Source: an uncultured Granulosicoccaceae bacterium
GTDB taxonomy: Bacteria > Pseudomonadota > Gammaproteobacteria > Granulosicoccales > Granulosicoccaceae
Length of the DNA stretch: 64,000 nucleotides
Assembly (NCBI GenBank): GCA_937951215.1
Contig: CALFCE010000205.1
Span: 51 to 64,050 of the forward strand
Direction of reading: 5' to 3'
Positions within the stretch are counted from its first letter, which is position 1. Every line of letters begins with the position of its first letter. Below the pieces are notes generated by a model, which was not told the origin of the DNA, did no database searches, and was given only the letters and a program-made list of their open reading frames with translations. Below, one piece after another: positions 2 through 6,302 of this stretch. A program made the translations under genes and the position numbers.

Positions 2-814
2 TACTTGCTGATGATTACGCTGTATCCGGGCGGTTACGCGCTGGTGCAGAGTTTTCATGCAGTCAAATTCGGTCCATGGCGCCCCATCGGATTTGAAAAC
101 TACACCACGCTGATGGGTGACTATCAGTTCTGGGGAGCACTCCTCAATACCTTGATCATCGGCTCTATTGCGCTGGCATTGCAGTGCGTAATCGCATTGA
201 CCCTGGCCTTTCACGCCTACCGGGATCCGTGGGTCCGTGGCTGGAGAATTATTTTTTTATTGCCGATGCTCTTTATGCCGTCGGCAGTCGCGTTTATTTA
301 CAAACTTGCTTTTCTGGATGCACGGGTATTCTCGGACCTGTTAATGAGAATTGGCTTGATCGACGCCAACCTGGCGATTCAGTCTTCGGTATGGATGAGC
401 CGTGGCTTGCTGATTCTGGCGGATGTCTGGCAATGGACACCCTTTTTGTTCATCATTTTTGTTGCAGCTCTGCAGGGCCAGGATCCTGAAGTTGAAGAGG
501 CAGCGAGACTCGATGGCGCGTCGTGGGGGAAGATTTTCTGGAATATATCCCTGCCGTTGATGCGTCCGGTTATTGCGGTAGCGCTGGTGTTGAGAGGAAT
601 TGACATCACAACCATGTTTGCCAACGTATTTATTATCACCAAAGGCGGGCCGGCCTTTGGCACCGAAACCATCAGTTATTTTATCTACCGGACTGGTTTC
701 AAATTTTTCAATTTTGGCTATGCCTCTGCGGCATCGGTGATCATGCTAATACTGACAATCATTATCGCGCAAGTGGTCGTGAAGCGCGCCTTTGTCTCCC
801 AACGGGAAGCATGA
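2..814 (+). CDS. ABC carbohydrate transporter permease, MalF/UgpA type (5' end outside window)
   Basis: The frame is open to the window edge. Polytopic membrane protein with the EAA loop EEAARLDGASWGKIFWNISLPLMRP. Its stop overlaps the next permease start. Confidence 0.88.
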   Translation, partial: YLLMITLYPGGYALVQSFHAVKFGPWRPIGFENYTTLMGDYQFWGALLNTLIIGSIALALQCVIALTLAFHAYRDPWVRGWRIIFLLPMLFMPSAVAFIYKLAFLDARVFSDLLMRIGLIDANLAIQSSVWMSRGLLILADVWQWTPFLFIIFVAALQGQDPEVEEAARLDGASWGKIFWNISLPLMRPVIAVALVLRGIDITTMFANVFIITKGGPAFGTETISYFIYRTGFKFFNFGYASAASVIMLILTIIIAQVVVKRAFVSQREA

Positions 815-1659
815 CGATGGCTGGCAAATCCGGACGCCGTTCCGAAAACCGCTTTATCCGCTATCTGATTTTATTCACCTGGGCACTGTTCTGCCTGATG
901 CCGATCCTGTGGTTTTTGTCGATAGGGCTGCGACCACGCATTGAAATTATCACACCCCAACCAATTTACTGGCCCAGCTTCTCGCTCGATGCCTGGAAGA
1001 TGATCTGGCAGGATTGGCCTATGGCCAAATACCTGTTTAACTCGGTCGCCGCCATTTTTGGCTCGGTGTTGATCGATCTGGTACTTGCAATTCCGGCGGC
1101 ATATGCACTGTCGCGATTTACATTCCGCGGCCGCGATGATATCGCTTTCTATATATTGTCAACGCGCATGATGGCGCCTGCCATTGTTGCCATCCCGATC
1201 TTTTTCCTGTTTCGCAATCTGGGTTTGCTCGACACCATATACGCGCTGATGCTGGTGTACGCAGCTATCAACTTGTCTATCGTCACCTGGATCATACGCT
1301 CTTACATGCTGGATATTCCAAAGGAGCTGGAAGATGCCGCTCGCACTGATGGCGCAGGTGACTTGAGAATTTTATGGGAGATCATCATCCCGGCGGTTCT
1401 GCCCGGCATCATTACCGCAGCAGTGATAGCAATGATTTTTGCAATCAATGAATTTCTCTTCACTTTGCTGATCGCATCCACACCCAATGCGTACACCATG
1501 TCAGTTGCGCTGGCAAACTTCACTGGTGGTTCGGACGGTGTTATTTACAACGCAATTGCCCTGGTCTCCTTTATCGCCATGGTCCCGGTCTTTATTGTGG
1601 TGCTGGCAATCCAGAAGCATTTGTCCCGCGGGCTGACCATGGGTGCAGTAAAAGGGTAA
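811..1659 (+). CDS. ABC carbohydrate transporter permease, MalG/UgpE type
   Basis: Six-TM-like protein with the EAA loop EDAARTDGAGDLRILWEIIIPAVLPG. It has a 4-nt overlap with the upstream permease. Confidence 0.9.
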   Translation: MTMAGKSGRRSENRFIRYLILFTWALFCLMPILWFLSIGLRPRIEIITPQPIYWPSFSLDAWKMIWQDWPMAKYLFNSVAAIFGSVLIDLVLAIPAAYALSRFTFRGRDDIAFYILSTRMMAPAIVAIPIFFLFRNLGLLDTIYALMLVYAAINLSIVTWIIRSYMLDIPKELEDAARTDGAGDLRILWEIIIPAVLPGIITAAVIAMIFAINEFLFTLLIASTPNAYTMSVALANFTGGSDGVIYNAIALVSFIAMVPVFIVVLAIQKHLSRGLTMGAVKG

Positions 1660-1662
1660 CTG

Positions 1663-2721
1663 ATGGCAAGAATTGAACTCATTGATGTACAAAAGCGCTG
1701 GGGACACTCCGTTGGCGTCAGAGACATCAACCTCGATATTGGCGATCAGGAGCTGCTGGTACTGCTGGGCCCGTCCGGCTGCGGTAAAACCACGACCATG
1801 CGGATGATTGCCGGGCTGGAAGAATTATCCGCTGGCGAGATTCTGATGGACGGGCAGCCGGTAACAGACGTTGATGCCAGAGACCGCGATGTTGCGATGG
1901 TTTTTCAGGGTTATGCGCTCTACCCGAACATGACCGTTTACGAGAACATCAGGTTTCCACTTCGCATGCGCAATGTACCCAAAAGCGAGCATCGCCACAG
2001 AGTACGCGAGGCTGCCGCCATGGTGGAGATGGAACCCTATCTGGACCGTAAACCTGCTGCACTATCCGGAGGACAACGACAACGTGCGGCGTTGGCGAGA
2101 GCGGTGGTACGTTCACCCCAGGTTTTTTTGATGGATGAACCACTATCCAACCTTGATGCAAAATTGCGACAATCCATGCGCATCCAGATCAAACAGCTAC
2201 AGCGCAAACTCAAGATCACCACGGTGTATGTCACCCACGACCAGATAGAAGCAATGACGCTGGCGGATCGCATTGTCGTGATGCATGAAGGCTCCTGCCA
2301 ACAAGTTGGAACACCCGATGAGATTTACTCTGACCCCGCCAATACCTTCGTCGCCTCGTTCATCGGCTCGCCTCCGATGAATCTGATACCGGGGGTAGTC
2401 GACGGCGGCGTGTTCGAATGTCAGAATGTCAGAGTCACTGGCATACCGGATTCGGTGACAGGCTCGGTCACTTTGGGCATACGGCCTGAAGACTGCTCGG
2501 TCGCAGGAAACAACAGCACACAGCACGCTCAGGGGACGGTCTATGGCGTCGAACCCACAGGCGACCTGACCTACCTGTCGGTCCAGGCCGGCGACAACAC
2601 TCTGGATATAAAAGCCAACAGAGATTACCGTTCAGAACTCGGAGAAATCGAAGCGATCGAATTTGATACACAACGGCTTTACTTTTTTGATTCAGCCAAT
2701 GGCATGCGTATTCGCGCTTAA
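1663..2721 (+). CDS. ABC transporter ATP-binding protein, MalK/UgpC type
   Basis: Walker A GPSGCGKTT, signature LSGGQRQR and Walker B FLMDEPLS, plus a C-terminal MalK-like regulatory/TOBE region. Confidence 0.93.
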   Translation: MARIELIDVQKRWGHSVGVRDINLDIGDQELLVLLGPSGCGKTTTMRMIAGLEELSAGEILMDGQPVTDVDARDRDVAMVFQGYALYPNMTVYENIRFPLRMRNVPKSEHRHRVREAAAMVEMEPYLDRKPAALSGGQRQRAALARAVVRSPQVFLMDEPLSNLDAKLRQSMRIQIKQLQRKLKITTVYVTHDQIEAMTLADRIVVMHEGSCQQVGTPDEIYSDPANTFVASFIGSPPMNLIPGVVDGGVFECQNVRVTGIPDSVTGSVTLGIRPEDCSVAGNNSTQHAQGTVYGVEPTGDLTYLSVQAGDNTLDIKANRDYRSELGEIEAIEFDTQRLYFFDSANGMRIRA

Positions 2722-2736
2722 AGATCAGGGGTAACC

Positions 2737-3693
2737 ATGACCACAAAACAATTTGACTATACCTCTGTCGGTTTTTACACCTTTGATTGTCTGGGTCGCC
2801 CGGTCAATCAAATACCGCCTGGCGCAGATACCTATTTTATCGACGAGCTGACACTGGCAGTATCCGGAGCTGCCGGTTCAGCCGCAATCGTAGCCGCCAA
2901 GCACGGATTGAAAGTACAGGCCGTGGGGGGTGTTGGCAAAGACGATATGGGTGACTGGGTCATACAGAAGCTATCGCACTTTGGAGTCGATACCCGGCAC
3001 ATGCAAGTCTGCCCGGATGTGTCTACCTCATCATCGATTGTGACAACACGCCCCAACGGGGATCGTCCGGCCCTGCACAAGAAGGGAGCTACCGGGGCAT
3101 TCTATGTCAACGATGAGCAGATCGAACAAGTGATTGATACCCGGATTCTGCACATCGGGGGCGTCGGTTTGATGGATGCAATGGATAGCGGTCGAACACT
3201 TGAATTGATGCAGGCAGCCAAGCAGGCGGACTGTCTCACTACGCTCGATGTCTTTGCTGCCACCCGTGATGATTTCAATCTGATCGAACCCCTGTTGCCC
3301 TACACCGACTATTTCATGCCTTCTGAAGAAGAGGCCAGAGCGCTGTCCGGGATGCAGGATCTCGGCGCGATTGCAGATTTTCTGCTCGACAAGGGTACTG
3401 GTGCCGTAGTGCTGACCCTCGGAGCAGACGGTGCTCGTTACAAAGACAATCAAGGCCGGGAATTCGCGGCACCCGCATTCAACATTGATGTTGTCTGCAC
3501 ATGCGGTTGTGGAGATTGCTTCAATGCAGGTTTTGCCACCGGTCTTCACCTCCAGCGCCCGGCTCGGGATTGCGTCATGCTGGGACAGGCTGCATCTGCG
3601 CAGAACGCCATGGGTCTGGGCTCTCAAGCTGTGGTATCCTCGCTTGAAGCGACGGTGAAGTTTATGGATAGTACTGCTCACCGTGCAGGTTGA
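2737..3693 (+). CDS. PfkB-family carbohydrate kinase
   Basis: Ribokinase-like layout with N-terminal GG (VGGVGKDDMG) and a C-terminal anion-hole motif CGCGDCFNAGFATGL. It sits directly downstream of the ABC importer. Confidence 0.85.
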   Translation: MTTKQFDYTSVGFYTFDCLGRPVNQIPPGADTYFIDELTLAVSGAAGSAAIVAAKHGLKVQAVGGVGKDDMGDWVIQKLSHFGVDTRHMQVCPDVSTSSSIVTTRPNGDRPALHKKGATGAFYVNDEQIEQVIDTRILHIGGVGLMDAMDSGRTLELMQAAKQADCLTTLDVFAATRDDFNLIEPLLPYTDYFMPSEEEARALSGMQDLGAIADFLLDKGTGAVVLTLGADGARYKDNQGREFAAPAFNIDVVCTCGCGDCFNAGFATGLHLQRPARDCVMLGQAASAQNAMGLGSQAVVSSLEATVKFMDSTAHRAG

Positions 3694-3705: not shown

Positions 3706-4464
3706 ATGACCGCGTCGGCACTGAAGGCACCGTTGATTCGTACACTGGTATTGTCCGTAAAAGATGGTTTGCGAGGCATCAGGCATATATTGCTGTCGCT
3801 ACGTAACCGTTTTGCCAGAGTCGCCAGACGCTCACCGGCACCCATGCGACAGTTTGGTAAAGTGCTGGTCAGCCACTTTGACCGTATCGCCGACCGGGTT
3901 GATCGCAACACTTCCAGTATCGTTCACCGGTACCTTGATCCCGAAATTTCGCGCAAGGCAGATGTCGCCGTTCTCTCCAGGATAACGTCACTGGACGAGG
4001 CCAGTGCCTCAGTCATCTTTGCCAAAATCTCCTACGACAACCTTAAATCCGTTATTGCCTACCTCTGTGATCGGCTGGATCATGAAGGTCACTTCTTTGT
4101 CAGCGAAGCACTGGGTGCAGTAGCGTATGGCCGTGCAGCAGGCAGCTTTCAAGACACCGCCTGCGAAAGCACAAAAGCTGCAATGTTGCTGCAGGCACTG
4201 CTGCGTGTTGGCATGGTCAGAACAGGTAGCAGCGGCAATGCCGCAACTTCATCGGATGCGGATACTCAAAAAATTGCTCAAATGAGTGTTTTCTCTGCCA
4301 TTCTCTGGCTGATCATCGAGCGTGAATCGACTCCCGAAAGTGAAGATGAACTGCTGATTGATTGTTGCGATCTGGCTCTGGCCCAGGCCGAATCGATTTA
4401 CCAGGCACTTGAGGACGTGCAGGCAATGGCTGACTTGATGGCGTTCTCCAGGGAAAGTGTCTGA
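3706..4464 (+). CDS. hypothetical protein (252 aa), no family recognised
   Basis: Long ORF with no competing frame. Its TGA stop overlaps the ATG of the next ORF (TGATG), which implies translational coupling. Confidence 0.6.
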   Translation: MTASALKAPLIRTLVLSVKDGLRGIRHILLSLRNRFARVARRSPAPMRQFGKVLVSHFDRIADRVDRNTSSIVHRYLDPEISRKADVAVLSRITSLDEASASVIFAKISYDNLKSVIAYLCDRLDHEGHFFVSEALGAVAYGRAAGSFQDTACESTKAAMLLQALLRVGMVRTGSSGNAATSSDADTQKIAQMSVFSAILWLIIERESTPESEDELLIDCCDLALAQAESIYQALEDVQAMADLMAFSRESV

Positions 4465-5903
4465 TGAATGCGCTCGAATCACGCCCTCCAGTCGTCTTTA
4501 ACAATCTGGGCGATGAACCCGTTCACCGCGCCATTCGTCGGCTGCGCTGGTTTAAATCCAGCTTTATCTCGCAGGTCAACTCGGTCTCTGAACAGACCGA
4601 CATCCAGTTTGAAACCAACACTGAAATACTGGCCCGTTGTTTCCTCGCATGGTTAAAGGAGTTTGAAGCCAGCAAACCCGATGATCCGGCAGAACGCGAA
4701 TCATTTCTGGGCTATGCGTCCGGCATGATGCTTCGCCGCCTGATAGAACTTGAGCCAGTGCGCCATCTTTCGATGCCGGAGGAATTCGATAAATCGGACC
4801 CGGCGATGTTTTGGCCTGAAGGCTATGTTTACGTCATGTACTGCCTCAATATTCGCAAGCTGGTCGCTGATGAGGCATTCGACGCCGGACTGGAATTCAG
4901 CCCGGCAGTCGCTGATATCAGCACTTGGTGGTCATTCCGGGAAAATGTCGGAGAGATGTCATCTTATGCCATCGCTTTCCTTGATCTCTTTGCAGGAAAA
5001 AAACCCGACTTTGTCACTCCGTATATTTTCAAACCGGAAGACTCCGCGCAAAGTCTGCCCCCGTCATCGCCGTCACAAACAAACCAGGCAACGACTCGGA
5101 CTGCGTCTCGGGCCGCCTCTCGGTTAGCCACTCGGTTAGCCACTGGGGCCGAGACCCAGGCTACGACAGCAGGCTTGTCCTGCGGGTTGCAGATAGGAGA
5201 GCAAAATTGCCGTGCAGTATTGGTCGATAACAGTGGCAGCTTGCTTTTCGAACGTAACACCGAGATTGCCATCCAGCCCGACTCGCAGCTGGCGACCACT
5301 CACTCTGCGGTGATCAATGAATTGCTGAGCGCGGCTCGGGATATCAATGTCACCCTGGAGGGTTCAAGCCTGCAAGGTCTGTTTGTATCAGTACCCGACA
5401 GTCTGCTGACGGACAGCGCCGAGATACAGAGTGCTATCAGCGCGAACACCGGGGTGGCGGTATCAGTGATGAGCACTTCAACCGCAGCTGCTGTCGCGGA
5501 GATAACCCTCGGTGCGGAGCTTCCCGATCGTAATTTCCTGTTGGTCTGGATGGCCTCACCTATCGAATATCGTATGGTTGTCGATGGCAAGGTAATTAAC
5601 GACACAGCATCAACACGCGGCAATACACCCGCTGTTACAGACCCTGCGACCCTCGCTGAGGAGTTGGCAGCAACGGTAAGCGTACTTCACAATGTAATGG
5701 GGTTACGTCAGGTGGTATTGGCACCGGCCAGCACCGAGCCCGATTATCCGCAACTGTTGGGCGAACTCAAGAATCGGCTGCCGGCCATCGATTTCCGTTA
5801 CAGTGAAGTACCCCAGACACCCGAGGCTTTCGGTGCCGTGTGTTTGCAGTTTATTGATATCGTCACAACCACCGGCGCAGACAGAACCCGGCTCGACAGC
5901 TAG
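4464..5903 (+). CDS. hypothetical protein (479 aa): unknown N-terminal domain, S/T/A-rich linker and a degenerate ROK/ASKHA-like C-terminal domain
   Basis: The C-terminal half parallels the ROK layout. LQIGEQNCRAVLVDNSG sits where DxGGT would be. VSVPDSLL sits where VPGxVD would be. STSTAAAVAEITLGAE sits where NDANAAALAE would be. WMASPIEYRMVVDGKV sits where GTGIGAGxxxxG would be. The catalytic and Gly motifs are lost. Confidence 0.6.
   Translation: MNALESRPPVVFNNLGDEPVHRAIRRLRWFKSSFISQVNSVSEQTDIQFETNTEILARCFLAWLKEFEASKPDDPAERESFLGYASGMMLRRLIELEPVRHLSMPEEFDKSDPAMFWPEGYVYVMYCLNIRKLVADEAFDAGLEFSPAVADISTWWSFRENVGEMSSYAIAFLDLFAGKKPDFVTPYIFKPEDSAQSLPPSSPSQTNQATTRTASRAASRLATRLATGAETQATTAGLSCGLQIGEQNCRAVLVDNSGSLLFERNTEIAIQPDSQLATTHSAVINELLSAARDINVTLEGSSLQGLFVSVPDSLLTDSAEIQSAISANTGVAVSVMSTSTAAAVAEITLGAELPDRNFLLVWMASPIEYRMVVDGKVINDTASTRGNTPAVTDPATLAEELAATVSVLHNVMGLRQVVLAPASTEPDYPQLLGELKNRLPAIDFRYSEVPQTPEAFGAVCLQFIDIVTTTGADRTRLDS
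5119..5142 (+). repeat. in-frame 12-bp x2 tandem duplication inside ORF 4464-5903
   Basis: CTCGGTTAGCCA occurs twice in tandem and encodes SRLATRLAT. Confidence 0.9.
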
Positions 5904-5923
5904 CTCGCAGTTTTGTCCCGGCT

Positions 5924-6013
5924 GGTTATCGGCCGGGTTTATCGACTGGGTTTATCGACTGGGTTTATCCGCTGGGTTTATCGATTGGGGTGATGGTTAT
6001 CGGCTGGGGTGAT
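5924..6013 (-). repeat. 13-bp tandem repeat array (about 6 copies) containing the stop codon of the DUF3391-like gene
   Basis: Plus-strand units are GGTTATCGGCCGG, GTTTATCGACTGG x2, GTTTATCCGCTGG, GTTTATCGATTGG, then GGTGAT, GGTTATCGGCTGG, GGTGAT. On the minus strand every unit reads ..CGATAA.., and the TAA at 5997-5999 ends the ORF. Confidence 0.9.
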
Positions 6014-6302
6014 CCCAAACCAGTTTGGTCTTGCCCTTGACAAAACCGCATAAGCGTAGCGGATTGTCGCGATTAACCTTGGCTACCTTCTCTGATTGAA
6101 TCAGTGCGTATTCGCATTCCTGCTGCACTTGTCTTAACTGCTCAGCGGAATCAATCCTGAATCCCTGAAACATAAAACTGGTTTGCTCCCAAGGCACATC
6201 CAGCTCGACAACCAGCATACCCATGCTGAGTTCGTTGCGATGAATCCACTGTCTGTCGGTAACGATGCGGGTTGCTGTCTGATCTGCGCTAACGTATTTC
6301 AT
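5997..6302 (-). CDS. stand-alone DUF3391-like domain protein (the N-terminal module usually fused to HD-GYP phosphodiesterases)
   Basis: The pattern ELSMGMLVVELDVPWEQTSFMFQGFRIDSAEQLRQVQQ matches the DUF3391 signature (L.vGMyV..LD..W..tpF...GF.i.s.eqi..L). No HD-GYP domain follows. Confidence 0.65.
   Translation of the reverse strand: MKYVSADQTATRIVTDRQWIHRNELSMGMLVVELDVPWEQTSFMFQGFRIDSAEQLRQVQQECEYALIQSEKVAKVNRDNPLRLCGFVKGKTKLVWDHPSR

Follow-up and report, generated by a model that had tools for sequence, protein, structure and literature searches.

A sugar operon in an uncultured Granulosicoccaceae bacterium ends in two genes that carry no family name, and the question raised by this locus is what such a pair of proteins contributes to the genes that precede it. 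We refer to the whole analysed stretch of 64,000 nucleotides (GenBank assembly GCA_937951215.1, contig CALFCE010000205.1, positions 51 to 64,050 of the forward strand) as the window. The first gene of the pair, an open reading frame on the plus strand at 3706..4464, encodes protein A (P0001, 252 amino acids), a helical protein of an unnamed family. The second, an open reading frame on the same strand at 4464..5903, encodes protein B (P0002, 479 amino acids), in which an N-terminal domain (N-domain) and a disordered linker are followed by a ROK-like, putatively pseudo-kinase domain (C-domain).

Our answer, to which we assign a probability of roughly one half when architecture and inferred function are taken jointly, is that A and B are the two proteins of a conserved accessory module, with which a mobile catabolic island ends. 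This overall figure reflects two parts of different strength: we hold the statements on the architecture of the pair with high confidence, and those on its function only tentatively.

The overlapping genes and their conserved core

A and B are real, co-translated genes. The stop codon of A (TGA) and the start codon of B (ATG) overlap in a TGATG (4461..4467, plus strand; within ...GTCTGATGAAT...), an overlap read from the sequence that suggests translational coupling. An earlier note on this DNA had placed both frames in this arrangement, on the same strand and behind an ABC (ATP-binding cassette) importer and a PfkB kinase, and both the sequence and Pfam agree. The stretch is present in marine metagenome runs. 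Other metagenome assemblies differ by ten single-nucleotide polymorphisms (SNPs), of which A has three and the ROK-like domain seven, and every one is a synonymous third-position change; therefore both frames are translated and under purifying selection, the ‘dead’ domain included. A second sample yielded a contig that runs across 4485-6100 without insertions or deletions, spanning the N-domain, linker and ROK-like domain of B, and because this assembly is independent, the domain fusion in B is no assembly chimera. Nothing in the GC content points to recent transfer.

Among the 1.84 billion representatives searched, 149 match B, nearly all of them through residues ~17-195 alone, and most are stand-alone proteins of ~200 amino acids. 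The ROK-like domain is common to B and only six metagenomic proteins, P0005-P0010 (four representatives), and its identity among these homologues is 24-44%, as against roughly 60-70% for the N-domain, the latter judged by eye. That is, the conserved unit is A together with the N-terminal helical domain of B, and the ROK-like domain is a rare, lineage-specific and fast-evolving add-on. The earlier note had described a ROK-like core in which a novel module replaces the usual winged helix-turn-helix (wHTH), an emphasis that must be reversed, since it is the N-domain that is widespread and conserved. Metagenome scans for further fused forms gave none with P0006 as the query, and only three N-domain-only loci with A1, the profile of seven full-length homologues; the divergence of the C-domain alignment (A4) was too great for it to seed such scans. 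The fused homologue P0008 and the A homologue P0017 each lie on a contig of 34,763 nucleotides, which hints at co-location and nothing stronger. Distant stand-alone N-domains of the B type (L002-L004, in genomes G013, G020 and G024) show 27-35% identity in open frames of 199-250 amino acids; these genomes are larger than that of the window and belong to a sister genus of the same family.

ROK is not the only fold that has been attached at this position. Twelve further members of the family (P0011, P0012, P0014, P0027, P0033, P0037, P0038, P0040, P0044, P0049, P0070 and P0094) join B to a HAD-like domain, and in 11 of these the nucleophile motif DxD (motif I) departs from the canonical form (GLH, GLD, EFD, DLA, DIE, DLR, DLC, DLS, AFE). 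We regard the HAD-like domain as a second, independent dead-enzyme appendage, mostly degenerate, in the same position on B as the ROK-like domain. There are also natural fusions of A to B: P0035, P0043 and P0045 each join an A-family N-terminal half to a B-family C-terminal half.

The N-domain of B (residues 17-192, the conserved family core; 4512..5039, plus strand) is modelled by AlphaFold as helical, with the addition of a small sheet of two strands, at a predicted local distance difference test score (pLDDT) of about 95, compared with 83 for B overall. Near-invariance is seen at F30, F60, W63, G87, W117, P118, G120, W155, S157, E160, N161, G178 and P181. None of 65 members of this family matches a Pfam family, and those B members that we looked up bear the name ‘hypothetical protein’ at NCBI. 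The earlier statement that neither A nor the first ~200 residues of B belong to a recognised family is thus upheld, neither Pfam nor NCBIfam giving a match. At E ≤ 1 we find no helix-turn-helix (HTH) family in residues 1-233 of B with either database; the same scan reports HTH_24/MarR and ROK in a true ROK repressor at locus L045. Weak leads for a Marivita B protein (DUF1266 at 0.80, DUF3806 and DUF6278) were left unused.

Between the two domains of B lies a low-complexity linker (residues 199-233; 5058..5162, plus strand), with pLDDT below 50 and 12-bp tandem repeats. Two overlapping TRF arrays with a 12-bp unit, at 5095-5123 and 5115-5144, encode ...SRLATRLAT..., and both the length and the sequence of the linker differ in every homologue. 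Given these repeats and this variability, replication slippage may shape the linker.

Protein A matches nothing in Pfam or NCBIfam at E ≤ 1. It has nine close homologues, and a profile extends its family to the gene of ~230-265 amino acids that, in alphaproteobacterial loci, stands directly upstream of B; when the A alignment was used for a profile search, no annotated relative emerged. Invariance or near-invariance across 15-52 diverse members is confined to R23, S133-E134, W201, R206 and L217. Fold searches with the model of A found no match, the best Foldseek value being E 0.19 and VIA returning generic helical hairpins only. A Fic/Doc fold was considered for A and rejected: the resemblance to Doc 3DD7 (Z 8.8 over 113 residues; Foldseek E 0.97) amounts to noise for helical proteins, and the Fic/Doc motif HxFx(D/E)GNGRxxR is absent from A, the His of HFFVSE being variable and replaced in homologues that read SFFISE or NFFISE.

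A ROK-derived domain that has lost its motifs

Residues 234-473 of B (5163..5882, plus strand) are a ROK-derived ASKHA domain that falls short of the ROK family by every sequence criterion, having neither catalytic nor nucleotide, sugar or zinc motifs. The only family matches of B are below threshold: ROK (PF00480) scores 12.6 bits against a gathering cut-off of 22.9 (E 0.095, residues 240-364). The same family gave B 13.7 bits in the genome search, with E 0.0011 for the best fused homologue, and the NCBIfam Mlc family NF049930 matches B at E 0.009. With the A1 profile the best PDB matches are ROK proteins (1Z05 at E 6e-4, 4HTL at 2.5e-3) and include the kinases GNE and NanK as well as Mlc, all on residues 247-390. 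An exhaustive search of the 1.84 billion representatives returned a sole match to residues 238-394 from outside the family, P0151, which is a true ROK protein by Pfam (E 2e-29). When the family was aligned by hhalign to this single ROK protein, the probability was 7.7% (E 0.0045), and we relied instead on fold searches.

AlphaFold models the ROK-like domain at pLDDT about 85-90 from a shallow alignment. Tested for the ASKHA fold by DSSP, the model contains two complete beta-beta-beta-alpha-beta-alpha-beta-alpha lobes, in residues 238-349 and 358-470. Foldseek ranks 2HOE first (E 4e-10), and ROK proteins occupy most of its top rows, with 4IJA at rank 3 and EutJ at rank 7. By VIA, 2HOE superposes at Z 18.2 with a root-mean-square deviation of 3.3 Å over 232 residues; the top 18 rows are all ROK (Z 18.2-14.8), Glk, hexokinases, FtsA and actins rank behind them, and many ASKHA chains score Z 11.5-18.2 over ~210-235 residues. 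Profile, Foldseek and VIA all agree with the ROK-like ASKHA fold that had been proposed for the C-terminal ~240 residues. A ROK repressor found ~1.5 kb from B at L045 and L035 was rejected as the source of the fusion, since it belongs to a neighbouring sugar operon.

The earlier note had matched four blocks of B, in order, to ROK motifs: LQIGEQN at 242, VSVPDSLL at 308, STSTAAAVAE at 337 and ASPIEYRMVVDGKV at 364. Three of them do align, by HMMER and hhalign, opposite DxGxT, NDAN and GTGIG, and VSVPDSLL comes to lie opposite the strand-4 block. At each functional position the ROK residues are replaced. In the phosphate-1 motif DxGxT (DIGGT), B has QIGEQ (residues 243-247) and its homologues have QIGLT, GIGWT, GIGWS, QLDTH or ALQSD. 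The NDAN block reads MSTSTAAAVAE in B, so placed that the position of the catalytic Asp is T339 or S340, and no homologue has an Asp there. The phosphate-2 motif GTGxGxG is represented by ASPIEYR (364-370), which aligns to GTGIGGG of 4HTL and GTGISCG of P0151, and the GG adenosine block by VVLAPAST at 417, a placement made by strand order in the model and not by alignment. The motifs ExGH and CxCGxxGC were not found, and the region from the hairpin at 376-378 to the helix at 394 is short in the model and variable among homologues. The only cysteines of the C-domain are Cys240, Cys249 and Cys460, and its only histidines His280 and His409. These alignments, along with the inventory of Cys and His, bear out the earlier claim that the phosphate-binding glycines, the catalytic Asp and the zinc-binding Cys motif are missing.

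Even among the seven fused homologues the residues at the motif positions disagree, and the invariant columns of the C-domain are almost all hydrophobic (L288, P311, A343, F358, L359, V372, G375, L401, L408, L414, P440, S447, C460). Both features argue against catalysis, and they do not indicate a conserved ligand pocket. The ROK-like domain is nevertheless retained under purifying selection, despite the loss of its nucleotide-, sugar- and zinc-binding motifs. Of the description as a pseudo-kinase, therefore, one half stands: the lost motifs mark what appears to be a non-catalytic, ROK-derived domain, and its use as a sensor is a possibility that we weigh below.

The island and its probable pathway

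In order to learn what the pair travels with, we assembled 80 loci, one genome per species, all found through B and each with flanks of 10 kb. Marine Alphaproteobacteria account for most of them (Stappia, Pelagibius, Marivita, Hoeflea, Paracoccaceae); a Granulosicoccus metagenome-assembled genome contributes one. A is present directly upstream of B in 78 of the 80 loci, and a candidate start for B lies between -8 and +20 nucleotides from the stop of A in 74 of 77. A DRL-type oxidoreductase (DRL_cat) occurs in 69/80 loci, the alpha subunit of an E1 (E1_dh) in 69/80 and its beta subunit (Transket_pyr and Transketolase_C) in 67/80; PfkB is found in 60/80, and the substrate-binding protein (a 525-residue SBP_bac_1 protein), permeases and ATPase in 56-66/80. 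The counts for an AcoC-like E2 with lipoyl, E3-binding and alpha/beta-hydrolase domains (39/80) and for a SorC-type regulator (18/80) are limited by the 10-kb flanks. The domains of these partner genes are by Pfam. The link of the pair to loci with an ABC importer and PfkB, which the earlier note had asked of other genomes, is accordingly borne out by the counts for A and PfkB, and the contexts in which A and B occur are not unrelated ones.

The full island is seen at L020 (17-10657), at L041 and L048 (1-10600 in both), and at L092, which is plasmid A of Sinorhizobium americanum. There the same order is annotated, with A and B given as two overlapping ‘hypothetical protein’ genes. Homologues of B lie on 31 plasmid or chromid records, from Rhizobium, Sinorhizobium, Shinella, Aminobacter and Paracoccus.

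The window holds one part of this island, in the order permease, permease, MalK-type ATPase, PfkB, A and B, all on one strand; the same order recurs in most of the 80 loci. ABC permease 1 (2..814, plus strand; BPD_transp_1, E 1e-10) is the first island gene within the window and is cut at its 5' end by the start of the contig, which begins 50 bp ahead of the window and inside this gene; it has 88% identity to the permease in the same position at L007. It is followed on the plus strand by ABC permease 2 (811..1659; BPD_transp_1, E 5e-18; 87% identity to its counterpart at L064), a MalK-type ABC ATPase (1663..2721; ABC_tran, OB_MalK, TOBE_2; 72% identity, L072) and a PfkB-family sugar or polyol kinase (2737..3693; PF00294, E 3e-41; 76% identity, L078), for which YdjH, ribokinase and sulfofructose kinase are the closest solved structures. 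Beyond the pair, from 23 nucleotides past the stop of B, a 13-bp tandem repeat (TTATCGACTGGGT, 4.9 copies, 5926-5989) fills the spacer up to a convergent open reading frame of 101 amino acids at 5997-6302.

To their best relatives, then, the permeases are 87-88% identical, the ATPase 72% and PfkB 76%, compared with 45% for A and 52% for the N-domain of B. Thus, the pair evolves much faster than the adjoining enzymes, and a rate gradient of this kind within an island is a pattern typical of non-catalytic partners. P0002 was not found in three genomes of the same genus that are 91-95% complete, and therefore the island is accessory. Of the 121 genomes sampled from the Marivita family, seven have B, nine a DRL orthologue and six both; in the three genomes with DRL only, DRL stands alone, with no E1, ABC or PfkB genes nearby. 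The pair thus tracks the island, not DRL as such.

One locus departs from the common layout. At L096 (G121:C8, 8915-13583) a frameshifted C-terminal fragment of PfkB precedes A and B, and an IspD-family cytidylyltransferase (PF01128, E 8e-56) begins 7 nucleotides past the stop of B and is followed by a Capsule_synth gene. This layout could link A and B to MEP, the 4-phosphate of 2-C-methyl-D-erythritol, or to a cytidine diphosphate (CDP) polyol, and it could equally be the scar of a rearrangement. Since the PfkB fragment is frameshifted and PF01128 also covers ribitol-phosphate cytidylyltransferases, the PfkB-A-B-IspD-like order is not used as evidence.

What the island does may be read from its partners. 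Its oxidoreductase matches the DRL of Brucella abortus (3UPL/3UPY) with 637 bits (E 1e-190) over 433 residues, and that enzyme is an experimentally established DXR-II (PMC3847144). Older work cited in PMC3424233 describes the formation of 1-deoxyketoses by acetoin dehydrogenase. The island probably degrades 2-C-methyl-D-erythritol, by what may be called a ‘reverse MEP’ route. In this route the ABC importer would take up 2-C-methyl-D-erythritol, and PfkB would phosphorylate it to MEP. DRL, running in reverse, would convert MEP to DXP, the 5-phosphate of 1-deoxy-D-xylulose, and the E1/E2 complex would oxidatively cleave DXP, a methyl-ketol, to acetyl-CoA and glyceraldehyde 3-phosphate. We favour this route as the simplest chemistry because a DRL orthologue is here joined with an importer, a kinase and a thiamine diphosphate (ThDP)/lipoyl complex of the acetoin-dehydrogenase type. 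If the island does degrade methylerythritol, the persistence of DXR-II alongside DXR-I, which PMC3847144 had posed as a question, would be accounted for, and A and B would be the only parts of the route to which no chemical step is assigned.

What the pair may do

We propose that A and B form a complex without enzymatic activity, an adaptor or regulator, and that this complex may act on the kinase step or on the phosphorylated polyol that the kinase produces. The dead ROK domain would then supply oligomerisation, docking or perhaps effector binding, and not catalysis. Such a role is suggested by the strict adjacency and coupling of the two genes, by their natural fusions, by their fast divergence and by the optional pseudo-enzyme domains at the C-terminus of B. 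Searches of Pfam and NCBIfam and whole-protein fold searches found no enzyme-like family, fold or residue pattern in either protein.

A first alternative, in essence the proposal of the earlier note, is that B is a pseudo-kinase ligand sensor mounted on a novel output module which, together with A, responds to the sugar that is imported, or to the phosphate of that sugar, by regulating the transcription or activity of the uptake locus. ROK-like and HAD-like folds typically bind phosphosugars. The C-domain is ROK-like in fold and non-catalytic, ROK repressors and the ROK-derived MecR2 (4IJA) are among its top structural matches, the alternative add-on found elsewhere is HAD-like and likewise mostly degenerate, and the pair stands at the end of its operon. 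However, Pfam and NCBIfam reveal no DNA-binding domain in A or B, and most carriers have no add-on domain at all, so that sensing by an add-on cannot be the general mechanism. The polar conservation of the ROK-like domain amounts to S447 and C460, its hydrophobic invariants give no sign of a pocket, and the ExGH sugar-binding and zinc blocks, which ROK repressors keep, are deleted here. Moreover, related islands possess a SorC-type regulator of their own. A regulatory or sensing role is therefore possible, but we consider it doubtful in this form.

It is also unlikely, in our judgement, that A, the N-domain of B or both are novel enzymes of the pathway, whose substrate might be, for example, a stereoisomer or a derivative of the polyol or of the phosphorylated polyol, the appendage serving only to hold it. 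Strict conservation inside a catabolic operon would suit such enzymes, as would the invariant polar residues R23, S133, E134 and R206 in A and S157, E160 and N161 in B, and one HAD fusion has an intact DxD. But the cluster of conserved His, Asp and Cys that is typical of metal or covalent catalysis was not found, the divergence of A and B far outpaces that of the neighbouring enzymes, and the proposed route would cover every chemical step without them. Neither family scans nor whole-protein fold searches found similarity to an enzyme family or fold.

The non-enzymatic complex may be carried one step further, into a conjecture that we hold to be speculative and rather improbable: the pair might be the gatekeeper of the ‘reverse MEP’ pathway, controlling the kinase or the DXP-cleaving E1/E2 and so sparing the essential pool of DXP and MEP, while the dead ROK and HAD domains would be interchangeable modules for phosphosugar sensing or docking, derived from former enzymes.

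Two explanations of the C-domain fare much worse. One holds that a ROK gene became fused to B through the loss of a stop codon and that the domain is what remains of it, without function and in decay. Every motif is indeed lost, the domain evolves fast, the linker before it is a repeat-containing stretch of low complexity, and most of the B family is without it; but the frame is intact in seven proteins of only 24-44% identity, the fold is predicted at pLDDT 85-90 from a shallow alignment, and 7/7 SNPs in the domain are synonymous, which makes decay very improbable. That the domain instead remains active and phosphorylates a sugar or polyol through non-canonical motifs, as a second kinase beside PfkB, is scarcely credible, for although both lobes of the ASKHA fold are complete, other residues, which vary among the seven homologues, stand in place of the catalytic Asp and of the phosphate-1, phosphate-2 and adenosine motifs.

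Against the accessory module that we propose, several points must be set. The degradation of methylerythritol is read from gene content only, and our search of the literature found no paper that describes such a route. The DRL, E1/E2 and substrate-binding half of the island is unassembled in the genome of the window, whose contig starts inside permease 1; elsewhere in that assembly, which is 84.7% complete, we find a DRL paralogue of 36% identity only, and substrate-binding proteins of 25-26%. The all-helical model of A has a pLDDT of 67, which is moderate confidence only. Because the fold-library searches used whole A and whole B as queries, a known fold or an enzymatic site in the N-domain of B could have escaped them. 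The conserved S-E of A and the S, E and N of B could have a catalytic role, and P0037, alone among the HAD fusions, keeps a canonical DxD (DLD).

The architecture has consequences of its own. Two families of ‘hypothetical proteins’ without a Pfam entry turn out to be near-obligate members of an island that is widespread in marine and plant-associated bacteria. Within this island DXR-II, the ‘alternative’ isoprenoid enzyme, stands together with an importer, a kinase and an acetoin-dehydrogenase-like complex. A dead ROK domain here and a dead HAD domain elsewhere, on the same carrier domain, make a clean natural example of pseudo-enzyme recruitment. Culturable carriers exist in Marivita cryptomonadis, Pelagibius litoralis, Paracoccus versutus and Sinorhizobium americanum.

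Among known systems, DXR-II/DRL and the AcoABC-like genes are those with which A and B keep company, the pair being clustered with a DRL orthologue and AcoA/B/C-like genes in 69/80 loci. The DRL literature available to us (including the family survey PMC3847144) treats DRL as a biosynthetic enzyme of the MEP pathway, and mentions neither the island nor the genes for A and B. A and the N-domain of B, for their part, are unnamed families that match no described family. A degenerate ASKHA domain in the place of a structural partner recalls TsaB/YeaZ, which is a non-catalytic ASKHA partner and not an ATPase. This is an analogy only: TsaB is not among the listed structural matches to B, and no specific relation in sequence or structure was seen.

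The closest comparison is with the ROK family (PF00480; 2HOE, 1Z05, 4HTL, 1Z6R), which spans sugar kinases of the glucokinase and NanK type and repressors of the Mlc and NagC type. Residues 234-473 of B share its two-lobe ASKHA fold and the same order of sequence blocks. Unlike members of the family, however, the C-domain of B scores below the Pfam cut-off, lacks the ROK motifs and is about 50 residues shorter than the ROK kinases; and unlike the repressors, B has no wHTH and carries its ROK-like domain behind an unrelated helical domain. The nearest in kind may be MecR2 of Staphylococcus aureus (4IJA), which has the ROK fold and is a top structural match to B (Foldseek rank 3, VIA Z 16.2). 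MecR2 keeps a wHTH-like N-terminal domain and belongs to the mec regulon, whereas B has another N-terminal domain and belongs to a catabolic operon. MecR2 is presumably a ROK-derived anti-repressor, not a kinase, that acts through protein contacts.

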